Below, piece by piece: positions 2,740 to 31,680 of a stretch of 64,000 bases of DNA. Below the pieces are notes generated by a model. That model was given only the letters and a program-made list of their open reading frames with translations, was not told where the DNA came from and searched no databases. The position numbers were made by a program, and so were the translations under genes. The stretch lies in IMG/VR virus record IMGVR_UViG_3300043812_000016, positions 32,001-96,000 of that record; one strand, written 5' to 3'. This stretch comes from a virus (taxonomy: Duplodnaviria > Caudoviricetes). Every line of letters begins with the position of its first letter. Position 1 is the stretch's first letter.

Positions 2740-3000
2740 TTAACCAACTCTACCTTTCCACTGCTTGATTTTTGATACTTGAAAGTCATTCCATTCGTCT
2801 ACCTAGCCTTTCTCCTTGATAAATTCTAACCAAAGGTGAGGAAGCCATTCCGTGACTTTCCATGTAATTTATAATATCCATTCGAGTCTCAGCCAAACGA
2901 TCAATCAAAACCATCTTTGTCGACATCAACTGGGACAATTGCTTTTCTGTAACTTACACTTCATACAATTAGGTGTATGAAAGATAATTGCATGGTACAT
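2740..3000 (-). CDS. NrdH/glutaredoxin-like redoxin (frameshifted in assembly)
   Basis: Manual translation MYHAIIFHTPNCMKCK (CxxC), then HGMASSPLVRIY...DEWNDFQVSKIKQW in another frame. Confidence 0.6.
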
Positions 3001-3113
3001 TCAATATTCTCTTTTCGTTGTTCAGATTTAATAGTTTAATTATACTCCTTAACCCAATCCTAAGTGCTAATTCTATAGCAGGAAAATTTTATTTTTTTTC
3101 ACTATAAAATGGT

Positions 3114-3139
3114 TTTAATGGGAGAAAGTGTGATATACT
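3114..3139 (+). promoter_or_regulatory. SigA-type extended -10 promoter at the divergence point
   Basis: TGaTATACT at 3131-3139. Confidence 0.55.
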
Positions 3140-3144
3140 AGTAT

Positions 3145-3620
3145 TCGGGTAATTAACGTTACCTAATTGAATAGTGTAAACCGACAGCGACCTTGGTATG
3201 TATATAACTGCCTAAGCCTTGGTAGTCGGTAGGGTTTAGTCTCCCAATAGTCGTGGTATGACTCAGTAGACTCGCTACCAATAGGTAACGTTAAAGGCTC
3301 TTGTACGTGCCTGTCATTATTTCCCTCCCTTTCGTGGGAAAGACGAAACGTAACAGGGTGGTAATGATTAGTTCTGCTAATTATTGCTTGGACCGCGTAT
3401 TGGGGTTCCAATCCTAACTTATCAACTTTGCTCAGGGAGGTCCCTGAGGATAAACAAAAAAAAGCTCTGATTCCCGGATGCTAAAACTAGGATGTGATAA
3501 GTAGGACCAAGGGTGCGCTGAGGTTAAAAATGGAACAGTACGAATAAGCCGTAAAACGTAAATAAGTACTGATGTCTTGCGGAGTAATTATTACTCTGTC
3601 TTTATTCTCGCTAATTAGTG
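3145..3620 (+). ncRNA. Large structured ncRNA of unknown family
   Basis: No credible ORF. Perfect 13-bp helix 3153-3165/3282-3294, plus helices 3412-3424/3495-3506, 3431-3437/3442-3448 and 3536-3541/3566-3571. Confidence 0.6.
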
Positions 3621-6864: not shown

Positions 6865-7263
6865 ATGAATTATATTGATCTAGCTTATACCGTTGAAAAA
6901 GATAAGGTAGAAGAAAAAGTTAAAGAGATTACTGTCGGTAATGAATACCGAGTAGCTAACATTGTTCCATTTGACGAAGACAATATGCTTCTTTGCTTAA
7001 CTAAAGCGCCAGCCACTAATCATGGTTATCAGCCTAAACAATTAGGAGAAATGAAACCTCGTAACCGTGCAGGAGAACCAGCTACTACTCGCCAGCTTAA
7101 TTATATTCGGCAATTAGCTAATAAAGCTGATAAGGACCCGGCAAGCTTAGATTTAGATAATCTAACGAAGAAAGACGCTGGGCGCTTAATTGGTCGGCTT
7201 AAAAAGAACAAAAAGTCCCTAAAGGTCAAGAAGATCTTGATTTCGGACAGGGTTTTGATATGA
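6865..7263 (+). CDS. Hypothetical protein
   Basis: RBS GAGGAGG; C-terminal PATTRQLNYI...LTKKDAGRLI motif. Confidence 0.6.
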   Translation: MNYIDLAYTVEKDKVEEKVKEITVGNEYRVANIVPFDEDNMLLCLTKAPATNHGYQPKQLGEMKPRNRAGEPATTRQLNYIRQLANKADKDPASLDLDNLTKKDAGRLIGRLKKNKKSLKVKKILISDRVLI

Positions 7264-7308
7264 ATGAATTAGATCAGATGAATTTTGGAAATTAATTCAT
7301 AATTCCTC

Positions 7309-7337
7309 TTGCTTTTCTAATGAGACAGGTGTATTAT
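7309..7337 (+). promoter_or_regulatory. SigA promoter of the tRNA/ncRNA operon
   Basis: TTGCTT-N17-TATTAT. Confidence 0.65.
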
Positions 7338-7395
7338 AGAATTGTTGGTTAAATACATTAATTAAATGTTAGTCAAATGGCCAATCCTTTCTTAT

Positions 7396-7468
7396 CGTGG
7401 AGTGGAGCAGTTGGTAGCTCGCCAGACCCATTATCTGGAGGCCACAGGTTCAAGTCCTGTCTCCGCAA
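7396..7468 (+). tRNA. tRNA-Met(CAT), initiator-like, with atypical anticodon arm
   Basis: Cloverleaf with C1:A72 mismatch; stem CCAGA/TCTGG; loop CC-CAT-TA; T-loop TTCAAGT. Confidence 0.85.
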
Positions 7469-7604
7469 TTGGACTTAGTTACCTTTGGGTGATGATAGCT
7501 AGGTCCTGCCTTCTTATAGTTAGACATTTGTTGAATGGTAGCTTCTTTTGGTTTGTAATTTTTGTTCGGACGTGTAAGTTTAACTGTGTGCAATTAGCAC
7601 ACTT

Positions 7605-7638
7605 GTCTCGATAGTCTAACTGGATAAAACATCGGATT
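7605..7638 (+). pseudogene. 5' half of a split tRNA (Arg-like)
   Basis: GTCTCGA acceptor strand, D arm AACTGGATAA, anticodon stem TCGGA; pairs with 8447-8483. Confidence 0.75.
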
Positions 7639-7649
7639 ATCTATTATAA

Positions 7650-7723
7650 GTGAGTATCGCCTAATTGGATAAGGCACTTGTCTTCTAAACAAGATATTAT
7701 GGGTTCAAATCCCATTACTCACA
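7650..7723 (+). tRNA. tRNA-Arg(TCT)
   Basis: Complete cloverleaf: GTGAGTA/TACTCAC, CTTGT-CTTCTAA-ACAAG, T-loop TTCAAAT. Confidence 0.92.
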
Positions 7724-7741
7724 TCTTCTTAATTATGGAGA

Positions 7742-8449
7742 GTGGTAGTAATTAAATATTTGATAAAAGATGTTAGTGACGATCAATTTATTAAAGCTGT
7801 TAAATCTAGTAAAACCTATACAGAGATTGCTAAAAAGCTTGGTGCTTACTATGCAAGTGCTCCCTCTGTTGTAAAACGTAGAATTGAACAGTTGGGGATT
7901 GATTTTAAACCTGTGTCTCCTAGATATGAACCAGATGACGTATTTTTCTCAGAGCATCATTATCATACTTCCCATACATTAAGAAGTAGATTACTAAAAA
8001 TAAAAGATCGTGAGTATATTTGTTCTGTTTGTGGGCATCTTCCTATATGGAATGGTCAAGCTCTTACATTGGAAGTTGACCATATTAATGGTGACTCATC
8101 AGATTGTAGGTTAGCTAATTTACGCTGGGTTTGTCCCAATTGTCACTCACAAACAAATACTTACAGAAGGGGTAATAGTGGTTCCCCTAGAGAATACTAT
8201 TATCATAGGGTATGTATTGTTTGTGATAAGGAATTTAAGTCTACATCCAGACATGCTAAATATTGCTCTAAGGAGTGTTATAAAAAGGCTTTTACCAAAA
8301 AACCTCCCATAGGTAAGAATGAACTTATCAAAAGATTACGACAGACTTCTTTTGTTCAGGTAGGGAGAGATTTTAACGTTACTGATAATACAGTAAGAAA
8401 ATGGTGTAGAAAGTATAACATTTCTACTAGGTCAAAAGATTATAAATAA
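7742..8449 (+). CDS. HNH homing endonuclease
   Basis: CSVCG...LEVDHINGD..DCRLANLRWVCPNCH, second Zn finger, C-terminal HTH. Confidence 0.9.
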   Translation: MVVIKYLIKDVSDDQFIKAVKSSKTYTEIAKKLGAYYASAPSVVKRRIEQLGIDFKPVSPRYEPDDVFFSEHHYHTSHTLRSRLLKIKDREYICSVCGHLPIWNGQALTLEVDHINGDSSDCRLANLRWVCPNCHSQTNTYRRGNSGSPREYYYHRVCIVCDKEFKSTSRHAKYCSKECYKKAFTKKPPIGKNELIKRLRQTSFVQVGRDFNVTDNTVRKWCRKYNISTRSKDYK

Positions 8450-8483
8450 TCCGAAAATCCGAGTCCGAGTCTCGGTCGGGACA
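8447..8483 (+). pseudogene. 3' half of the split tRNA
   Basis: TAA-TCCGA anticodon stem, T arm CCGAG-TCCGAGT-CTCGG, TCGGGAC-A acceptor strand. Confidence 0.75.
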
Positions 8484-8487
8484 TTGT

Positions 8488-8710
8488 AGCAATTATGTGG
8501 AATAGATAGAATTTCATAAAAACACCTCCTTCCAATAAAATTGGATTTCAAAATAATTTAGTTGTAATACATAAGACAATAGGTTCACCCTATAAAGTTC
8601 CTTTCGTTAATACGGAAGACTAAAGTTAGTAGTCTTCTAAAGATGATTAAGTCTTAAAATTTCTTTATTCGTATCCTCTATCTAAGTAGGTTCGATTCCT
8701 GCAATTGCTA
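8488..8710 (+). ncRNA. tRNA-like-domain RNA with a ~165-nt internal region bearing anti-SD tracts
   Basis: Acceptor AGCAATT/AATTGCT, helix TAGATAGA/TCTATCTA, T arm GTAGG-TTCGATT-CCTGC. Confidence 0.7.
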
Positions 8711-30615: not shown

Positions 30616-31680
30616 TTGCCTGATAAATTAAAGAATGCTATGGACGCTATTGATAAAGCTCGTAAGTCATTAGTGTCTACAGAAGACACAGTAGAAAAGT
30701 CTGCTGAAGTTGAAAAGACTGATCCAGATGTAAAAGCACAGGAAGAAGCAACTAAGTCTACTGAGGAAGCTGAAAAGAACGTTAACCAAGCTACTATTTC
30801 AGATGATAATGAAAAAGTAACTAAGGACGTTGACGATGATGATGTAGAAGAATCTGCTGATAAAAAGGATAAGTCAACTAAGTCTGTTGATGAAGCTGAA
30901 AAATCAGAAGACGAACCTGCTGTAGAAAAGAATACAGACGCTAAGACTGAAGAAGCTAAGGCTAAGCAACATAAAGAATTAACTAATGTTGATGATCCCA
31001 AGGGTCATGAAGAAGCTTCTAAGTCATTTGATACTAATGCAGTAATTGACGCTTTAACTAAGTCTGTTGATACTATGGCTGAAATGCAAAAGTCTTACAA
31101 GGAATTAGCAGAAGCTTCTATGGAAATTGCTAAGTCATTCTTGGCTAAGCAAGCACCTATTGAAGATCAAGCTGAAAAGTCAGTAGAAAAGTCTCAAGAT
31201 AAAAAGTGTGGAGACGATGATGATGTAGAAGAATCTGCTGATAAAAAGTGTAAGACAGCTAAGTCTGATGATGACCAAGAACCAGATACAGATGATGAAG
31301 CTAAAGACGACAAGGAAGACAAAGCTAAGAAGTCTGTAGAAGATCCTGCTGATAATGCTGATGAAGCTGAAAAATCAGTGGAGGAACCAGCAGAAGAAGA
31401 TAAGGCTGAAAAGTCAATCCCTACTGGTAAGGCAGTTGCTACGGGTGCAGAAGAAGCTAAGGACGATACAGTTGCTAAGTCTGTAGAAACTCAAGAAGAC
31501 GGTGTTACTAAGGAAGCCTTAGAAAACGTAATCGCCAAGTCATTGCTTGGTTTTGATGGTGTACAAAGCGGTGTTAACTTGGAACGCAAGCACGCCTTAA
31601 AGAGTCTCTTAGCTGATACTCGAGAACTTAAAGGTACTACAGTTCCCGATAGTTTTATTGAAAGATATAACGAAATTTAG
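30616..31680 (+). CDS. Acidic scaffold-like protein
   Basis: Between protease and capsid genes; D/E/K-rich with many KS motifs and an internal 36-nt duplication. Confidence 0.7.
   Translation: MPDKLKNAMDAIDKARKSLVSTEDTVEKSAEVEKTDPDVKAQEEATKSTEEAEKNVNQATISDDNEKVTKDVDDDDVEESADKKDKSTKSVDEAEKSEDEPAVEKNTDAKTEEAKAKQHKELTNVDDPKGHEEASKSFDTNAVIDALTKSVDTMAEMQKSYKELAEASMEIAKSFLAKQAPIEDQAEKSVEKSQDKKCGDDDDVEESADKKCKTAKSDDDQEPDTDDEAKDDKEDKAKKSVEDPADNADEAEKSVEEPAEEDKAEKSIPTGKAVATGAEEAKDDTVAKSVETQEDGVTKEALENVIAKSLLGFDGVQSGVNLERKHALKSLLADTRELKGTTVPDSFIERYNEI

Follow-up and report, generated by a model that had tools for sequence, protein, structure and literature searches.

Organization of the locus

The DNA examined here, called the window throughout, is a stretch of 64,000 nucleotides (nt) corresponding to bases 32001-96000 of a 143,482-bp metagenome-derived phage record (IMG/VR record IMGVR_UViG_3300043812_000016). 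At positions 7605-8483 of the window lies a tRNA-Arg(TCT) gene which is interrupted in its anticodon loop by an 808-nt insert. The insert, referred to below as the cassette, comprises a second, intact tRNA-Arg(TCT) gene and a gene encoding an HNH endonuclease. We call the interrupted gene the outer tRNA and the gene carried by the insert the inner tRNA. The DNA of the window matches only distant phages, namely large Staphylococcus and Lactobacillus phages, and a search of cultured-phage DNA with the locus, in which records close to this genome may be masked, returned only tRNA-Met-like matches.

All components lie on the plus strand. Downstream of a tRNA-Met gene, the outer 5′ half is followed by a short filler, the inner tRNA, a spacer, the open reading frame (ORF) of the HNH protein and the outer 3′ half (Table 1). 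An earlier note, made by a model from the letters of the DNA and a list of its ORFs, had recognized this arrangement, and its description is correct at the coordinates it gives. The two fragments are halves of one tRNA: when 7605-7638 is joined to 8447-8483, ARAGORN calls a cloverleaf at nearly every trial joint, and in its long-intron mode the program finds the split gene directly (7604-8484, with an intervening sequence of 800 nt). The gene between them is called by ARAGORN as an intact tRNA-Arg(TCT), and the ORF has both an HNH_3 domain above the Pfam cut-off and a full-length match to phrog_10822. Furthermore, the TAA stop codon of this ORF coincides with positions 36-38 of the old anticodon loop and thus ends it, as the note had stated.

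Table 1. Components of the split tRNA locus, in window coordinates. L006 and L007 are phage contigs with an uninterrupted tRNA gene (see text).
Feature	Positions	Strand	Basis or remark
tRNA-Met	7395-7469	+	
Outer (type A) tRNA-Arg(TCT), 5′ half: acceptor 5′ strand, D arm, anticodon-stem 5′ strand, loop positions 32-33	7605-7638	+	100% identity to the 5′ part of the intact L006/L007 tRNA; cloverleaf when rejoined
Left junction filler, 11 nt, beginning A-TCTA	7639-7649	+	missing from the empty site
ATTATAA direct repeat, 7 nt (palindromic core), left copy	7643-7649	+	read from sequence
Inner intact tRNA-Arg(TCT)	7650-7723	+	ARAGORN; Rfam 70.8 bits
Spacer (18 nt) between inner tRNA and HNH ORF, with GGAG ribosome-binding-like motif; fast-evolving	7724-7741	+	sequence
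HNH endonuclease gene, 235 amino acids, GTG start uncertain, stop TAA at 8447-8449	7742-8449	+	ORF, Pfam, PHROG
ATTATAA repeat, right copy, inside the end of the HNH ORF	8439-8445	+	sequence
Outer tRNA, 3′ half: loop positions 36-38 (the HNH stop), anticodon-stem 3′ strand, variable loop, T arm, acceptor 3′ strand, discriminator A	8447-8483	+	100% identity to the intact L006/L007 tRNA; pairing check

Empty sites and the identity of the interrupted tRNA

Exact searches with either half of the outer tRNA lead to two IMG/VR phage contigs, L006 and L007, in which the halves are contiguous and separated only by the 7-nt loop TTTCTAA. This is an uninterrupted tRNA-Arg(TCT) gene, which we term type A, and it scores 58.5 bits against the Rfam tRNA model. 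The match of both halves to this intact gene is far beyond chance. The neighbourhood is also the same as in the window, with tRNA-Met upstream and a GH25/LysM lysin gene downstream. At the same locus, a third relative (L198) carries another intact allele, type B, with the loop CTTCTAA. Both empty alleles are represented in one metagenome, IMG 3300043781. The search for uninterrupted relatives that the earlier note had proposed therefore succeeds, and its suggestion that the old tRNA also read Arg(TCT) is borne out by these genes. The unusual T-loop TCCGAGT which it had pointed out is present in the outer tRNA; it is not a sign of decay, because the intact allele of L006 and L007 shares it.

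The window and 14 further alleles (L009, L188-L197 and L202-L204) are occupied, so that a presence/absence polymorphism exists at a single site, with three empty and 15 occupied alleles. Fifteen metagenome assemblies, all independent, have the same insert in the same place. The HNH protein belongs to a 90%-identity protein cluster of 52 members.

Alignment to the empty sites delimits the insert to 7639-8446, with the homology breaking after T33 (7638) and resuming before T36 (8447). The insert therefore replaces T34-C35 of the original loop. Beyond the inner tRNA and the ORF, only 29 nt of it are left. At the left junction the window reads ATCTA, which may or may not be a relic of the old anticodon, and the commoner cassette variant ATTTA, which is a single difference. 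The spacer upstream of the HNH ORF differs from that of the occupied relative L009 at 5 of 21 aligned positions. The ATTATAA repeat near the two ends was considered as a target-site duplication and rejected because the intact target does not contain this sequence; it is possibly a chance occurrence in AT-rich DNA or a microhomology used in the founding insertion.

A group I intron can be ruled out, in agreement with the earlier note, which had seen no such core. The segment 7000-9000 has no Rfam intron match at E<=10, and with it no match to a P3-P9 catalytic core; the insert lacks a terminal G, the last G (8438) lying 8 nt upstream of the right homology boundary; and the 29 nt outside tRNA and ORF leave no room for a ribozyme. 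The related split-tRNA loci described below likewise show no group I intron in Rfam, at the gathering score and at E<=5.

Population signs of mobility

The occupied alleles fall into two cassette variants. Among eight distinct alleles of the common one (variant 2), the mean pairwise divergence of the cassette is 0.65%, as against 5.0% in the left 700 nt and 5.8% in the right 900 nt of flanking DNA. The cassette is thus 8-9 times less diverged than its flanks, and the difference is significant in all 28 pairs. The window carries the second variant, which differs from variant 2 by 9.2-9.7% even though the divergence of its flanks is mostly 3-7%. These discordant divergences are positive evidence that tRNA and HNH gene move as a block.

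The outer halves record several combinations of the two tRNA types. In the window, L009, L194 and L196 both halves are of type A and the stems are those of the intact type A gene, and in L197 both are of type B with intact stems. L195 joins a type B 5′ half to a type A 3′ half, which results in one anticodon-stem mismatch. Four alleles (L189, L190, L192 and L193) have a type B 5′ half and a 3′ half that switches from A to B within the T arm; they contain 3-4 stem mismatches and are not called by ARAGORN. Finally, both halves of L188 and L191 are of type B, with an 8-nt type A remnant (TCCGAAAA) before the 3′ half, which lengthens the right junction by 8 nt. The first loop base is the donor-type T in every occupied B allele but C in intact B. 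The crossover footprints lie within ~40 nt of the insert.

The mosaic halves, the remnant and the donor-type T look like co-conversion tracts of differing length. Such a pattern is compatible with break-induced repair, although it falls short of proof. The mismatched alleles also show, as far as their sequences can tell, that pairing between the outer halves is not under selection in them. The mismatched halves and the lack of a ribozyme core argue against splicing of the halves, and the mosaics argue against any need to rejoin the outer tRNA, including by archaeal-type bulge-helix-bulge splicing. The EndA splicing endonuclease is not known from bacteria.

In three further occupied relatives the HNH gene has a premature stop at codon 86, leaving a product of 85 amino acids (P0119; L202 2501-2758, L203 507-764 and L204 303-560). 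Their outer tRNA is of type B, and its acceptor stem contains an A/C mismatch. Such elements are degenerating, as expected of a late stage of the homing cycle.

The inner tRNA

Across six cassettes, five stem pairs of the inner tRNA show double compensatory changes, and only one of 126 cells is broken. The anticodon arm is invariant. This pattern indicates that the inner tRNA is maintained under structural selection. Each phage of the group would therefore have one working tRNA-Arg(TCT) at the locus, either the original or the carried one.

The inner tRNA is not a simple copy of the gene it interrupts. In comparison with the outer and the intact Arg tRNAs, all five pairs of its anticodon stem use different bases, and it is presumably owing to these pairs that the inner copy would escape recognition by the HNH protein. 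The loop of the inner tRNA, CTTCTAA, is shared with the intact type B allele. Exact searches with the D and anticodon arms found no occurrence in IMG/VR or in 185,579 GTDB species genomes, and hence neither a donor context nor a host source; the inner anticodon arm is thus specific to the cassette.

The HNH endonuclease and its family

The HNH protein matches Pfam HNH_3 with 29.8 bits (cut-off 24.8), in addition to a C-terminal helix-turn-helix (HTH_28); helix-turn-helix-like domains are found at both its N-terminal and C-terminal ends. The phrog_10822 match covers residues 10-223 (E 2.5e-48). Translated searches (tblastn) align residues 10-220, or 90% of the query, with the 'H-N-H endonuclease TflIV' encoded by hegA of phage T5 (24.4% identity, E 2e-12), a gene located directly after a tRNA in the T5 tRNA region. 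The AlphaFold2 model has a pLDDT (predicted local distance difference test) of 84.9, and both a PDB sequence search and a Foldseek search with this model gave only weak HNH and HTH matches.

The D-H...N motif and two Cys-x2-Cys zinc pairs are conserved. In 22 homologues, C94, C97, H114, N126, C131 and C134 are invariant and D113 is nearly so (at least 90%); within the six-member close clade, D113, H114 and H135 do not vary. Between the window and L009, the HNH genes differ by 41 synonymous and 23 non-synonymous codons, which points to purifying selection. In the literature, the F-Tfl enzymes of T5 are regarded as homing endonucleases that act site-specifically and belong to the tRNA cluster (PMC2330249; PMC10644984). 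From its sequence, the HNH protein belongs to the F-TflIV/phrog_10822 family, and site-specific cleavage is predicted for it.

This family has hundreds of relatives in phage contigs. Upstream sequence was sufficient at 149 family loci, and at 92 of these an intact tRNA on the same strand ends no more than 250 nt before the HNH gene. One homologue (L098, 38% identical) is an ordinary gene between tRNAs. A metagenome scan with the alignment of the close clade yielded only homologues of at most 40% identity and no new nested case.

Recurrence in other phages

The nested layout, in which an Arg-type tRNA is split by an inner tRNA-Arg(TCT) and an HNH gene, is found again in four phage groups that are more distant. 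The HNH homologues are 48-60% identical, each is preceded by a homologous inner tRNA-Arg(TCT), and the outer tRNA is a different one each time. The layout is complete in L094 (P0003), in L011, L012 and L013 (P0004) and in L095, L096 and L097 (P0005); in L010 (P0002) the outer 5′ half only is present, the contig ending there. In L102 and L107, the same D and anticodon arms belong to intact phage tRNA-Arg(TCT) genes. In L094, a terminator-like hairpin followed by a T run (~102-127) separates the outer 5′ half from the inner tRNA, which suggests that transcription of this cassette is independent of the 5′ half. The phages of L012 and L095 are related yet far diverged, and eight compensatory pairs distinguish their outer stems.

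More remote HNH homologues split tRNA genes in other ways. The cultured Schiekvirus Enterococcus phage PEf771 (L200; MN241318.1) has, at 1407-2241, a tRNA-Lys(CTT)-like gene whose anticodon loop is interrupted by PEf771_65, an annotated HNH gene with a product 39% identical to that of the window. The tRNA halves are unannotated, and the TAA stop again borders directly on the 3′ strand of the anticodon stem. No inner tRNA is present; a tRNA-Lys(TTT) that is intact follows ~130 nt downstream.

A second class is formed by L016, L020 (=L151), L115, L126, L136, L158, L163, L179 and L184 (~1350-2300, loci with full flanks). Here various tRNAs, some of them CCA-encoding, are split in the anticodon loop by HNH genes of the same superfamily (33-38% identity), again without an inner tRNA. 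The ORF is flanked by non-coding sequence, ~80-120 nt before it and ~22-25 nt after it, and the ends of the insert pair with covariation (TTAGAT/ATCTAG, TTAAAT/ATTTAA and TTGAATAG/CTTATTTCAA). The members that were scanned have no Rfam group I match at E<=5. The paired, covarying ends hint at a structured junction at the RNA level, and the class could be an undescribed intron-like element. Next to the split-tRNA/HNH locus of L136, a full-length ROOL RNA (2985-3590, 348 bits) lies in a phage tRNA array.

In L045, L063, L066, L078/L080/L083 and L088 (~1416-2526), tRNAs are split by a longer HNH ORF of ~275-308 codons from stop to stop. These loci share ~50-170 nt of conserved non-coding sequence 3′ of the ORF with the motif GGATG..ATAGTC. 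In appearance this sequence resembles the 3′ portion of a group I intron, but it has no Rfam match. A nested tRNA-His called by ARAGORN in L055 was rejected as spurious, its 3′ half lying inside the HNH ORF.

Neighbouring elements

Directly after the split tRNA, at ~8488-8710 on the plus strand, the window contains a tRNA-like element that has an acceptor stem and a T arm of canonical form, while ~166 nt stand where the D and anticodon arms should be. The empty-site relatives L006, L007 and L198 retain this element, which is therefore not part of the cassette. A comparable scaffold with ~260 nt of cargo is found downstream of the split tRNA in L011-L013. On the minus strand just outside the window (G000:C1:31315-31400; L004 1290-1375), a weak tRNA match of 31 bits has 32 nt in place of the 17-nt anticodon arm, and a genome search gave a second match at 31526-31602 (39.6 bits). 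ARAGORN makes no call for either of the two. L191 differs from the window and the other relatives by an IS200/IS605-type pair (Y1 transposase and OrfB/TnpB-like gene) 3′ of the lysin gene, at 6917-8597.

A proposed cut-and-replace mechanism and its alternatives

We propose, with a probability of about 80%, that the 808-nt insert is a mobile homing cassette which cuts and replaces its target, and which consists of the HNH gene and its own tRNA-Arg(TCT). In a mixed infection, the HNH protein would introduce a break into a related phage's uninterrupted tRNA-Arg(TCT) gene, within the anticodon-arm DNA or close to it. The break would then be repaired by recombination with a cassette-bearing genome, for which the tRNA halves and the neighbouring phage DNA could serve as homology arms. 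In this way the whole cassette would be copied into the anticodon loop along with a short stretch of the donor flanks. The resident tRNA would be destroyed and remain as two non-spliced halves, while decoding of AGA would be kept up by the inner tRNA, whose five altered anticodon-stem pairs presumably hide it from the nuclease. From the sequences we infer four elements of this scheme: that the cleavage site of the HNH protein lies within or close to the anticodon loop of the intact tRNA-Arg gene, that the inner gene resists cutting, that the spread of the cassette depends on the HNH protein, and that no spliced outer RNA exists. The earlier note had already put forward intronless homing with destruction of the target tRNA and a carried replacement. 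This is largely supported by the empty sites, the discordant divergences, the mosaic halves, the purifying selection on the HNH gene and the compensatory changes in the inner tRNA.

Several points weigh against the proposed mechanism. Cleavage by free-standing homing endonucleases can take place at a distance from where their genes are inserted. The inner loop equals that of type B, which is itself presumed to be sensitive, which leaves the stems as the only basis for any discrimination by the enzyme. Low divergence of the cassette would likewise result from a selective sweep in which ordinary recombination spread a beneficial tRNA. The outer halves in the four other contexts all still form perfect cloverleaves, and the compensatory differences between L012 and L095 may reflect either separate recent invasions of diverged tRNA genes or retained function. 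Lastly, related HNH genes split tRNAs without bringing a replacement, as in Enterococcus phage PEf771, so that the family does not depend on a rescue copy.

The sweep just mentioned is the core of an alternative in which ordinary homologous recombination, combined with positive selection for the inner tRNA, spreads the cassette, with the HNH gene as a passenger or an enzyme that cuts elsewhere. The inner tRNA could be favoured, for example, by escape from a host anticodon nuclease or by better decoding. It does outscore type A against Rfam (70.8 versus 58.5 bits), and reports cited in a passage of PMC10644984 describe phage tRNAs that evade tRNA-targeting defences through changes in the anticodon loop. 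Such a process would account for a uniform cassette on diverged flanks, but it leaves unexplained why the insert sits inside the anticodon loop of the very gene it replaces, why the arrangement recurs in four distant phage groups and always with an HNH gene, and why the crossovers cluster so close to the insert. Since the HNH gene is moreover under purifying selection and its family comprises site-specific endonucleases from tRNA clusters, we regard this explanation as unlikely. An assembly artefact or chimera, which a metagenome-derived contig might suggest, has a negligible probability: the same junctions appear in 15 independent assemblies from different samples and pipelines, and this effectively refutes it.

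The remaining alternatives give the outer halves a role as RNA. HNH genes of the F-TflIV-like family in tRNA anticodon loops might form a class of ribozyme-less, intron-like elements for which tRNA enzymes or an unknown ligation regenerate the tRNA, or excise and stabilize the HNH message, the variant in the window having added a spare tRNA; this we consider very improbable. A functional outer tRNA, obtained by removal of the insert from the RNA or by ligation of the halves in trans, would amount to a new kind of bacterial or phage tRNA intron. It would fit the good cloverleaves formed by the outer halves in five different contexts, the eight compensatory pairs between L012 and L095, and the halves of the window and L009, which show 0 differences in 72 nt where the HNH genes differ by 10%. 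This identity is nevertheless explained by near-identical backbones. Splicing is also hard to reconcile with the missing ribozyme core, the 29 nt of spare sequence, the position of the last G, the mosaic alleles with 3-4 stem mismatches and the others with an 8-nt insertion or an acceptor mismatch. In L094 the terminator-like hairpin stands between 5′ half and inner tRNA, and the anticodon of the outer tRNA is in every case found on an inner tRNA as well, which would be redundant if splicing worked. Taken together, these observations make a functional outer tRNA barely credible. The acceptor and T arms could instead act as general tags for RNA processing or stabilization, with the HNH mRNA as cargo. 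The scaffold directly downstream, which the empty-site relatives keep, and the weak tRNA-like match with an enlarged anticodon region at G000:31315-31400 are in line with this idea. Against it, the presumed scaffold around the HNH gene was formerly an intact, ordinary tRNA-Arg gene and still is one in relatives, and its pairing is lost in mosaic alleles. Processing by RNase P and RNase Z is established for tRNAs, and at the inner tRNA it would probably cut the 5′ half off the cargo. We judge the tag function highly improbable.

Relation to known systems

Bacterial group I introns occupy the anticodon loops of several tRNAs, namely tRNA-Leu(UAA), tRNA-fMet, tRNA-Arg(CCU) and tRNA-Ile (Azoarcus). 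The cassette shares this site of insertion but has neither ribozyme core nor terminal G, and it brings a spare gene in place of splicing. In phage Aeh1, the free-standing HNH gene mobE reportedly splits nrdA without intron or intein ('genes in pieces'). The pieces of nrdA stay functional as a split protein, whereas here the split product would be dead and the carried copy would supply the function.

F-TflIV (hegA) of phage T5 and its sisters F-TflI/II resemble the window enzyme in that the HNH proteins are homologous and the gene lies directly downstream of a tRNA in a phage tRNA region. Unlike the cassette, hegA stands alone in an intergenic position, with no split tRNA around it, and it is not known to bring along a replacement for a gene that it destroys. 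In phage T4, SegB cleaves tRNA genes in the DNA of relatives without this enzyme, and its own gene spreads by co-conversion together with the tRNA genes next to it (PMC2330249). The end of its ORF also abuts tRNA sequence, in T4 the 5′ end of tRNA-Arg (PMC2330249). However, SegB is a GIY-YIG enzyme encoded in an intergenic position, and it replaces a region by means of flanking homology without leaving a split target gene. None of these three systems (T5 F-TflIV, T4 SegB and Aeh1 MobE) combines insertion into the target with a carried replacement, and our literature search found no description of an HNH gene inserted within its target tRNA together with such a replacement.

The design logic is that of engineered home-and-rescue (HomeR) and cleave-and-rescue drives, in which a nuclease hits a needed gene, and the drive is located in this gene or disrupts it and carries a recoded rescue copy intended to withstand cutting (PMC7968924). 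Those drives are synthetic, based on CRISPR and built for insects, while the system described here is a natural one of HNH type in phages. Furthermore, the phage target is a tRNA that is probably beneficial and not essential, and the resistance of the rescue copy is putative.

Implications

Homing endonuclease genes usually spare their host by residing in self-splicing introns, in inteins or at intergenic sites. The cassette would represent a third solution, which is to break the target gene and to bring a substitute of divergent sequence. The logic of home-and-rescue drives has apparently evolved naturally in phages, and drive-like signatures are visible in metagenomic populations as a near-uniform cassette on diverged backbones, co-conversion mosaics and late-stage nonsense alleles. 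For annotation, the locus is a warning that half-tRNAs flanking HNH genes are real features. The intact outer-type gene and the inner gene provide a natural pair of putative sensitive and resistant targets with which the specificity of an uncharacterised HNH clade can be approached. Beyond this single element, the cassette offers a mechanism for the exchange and replacement of tRNA genes between phages.

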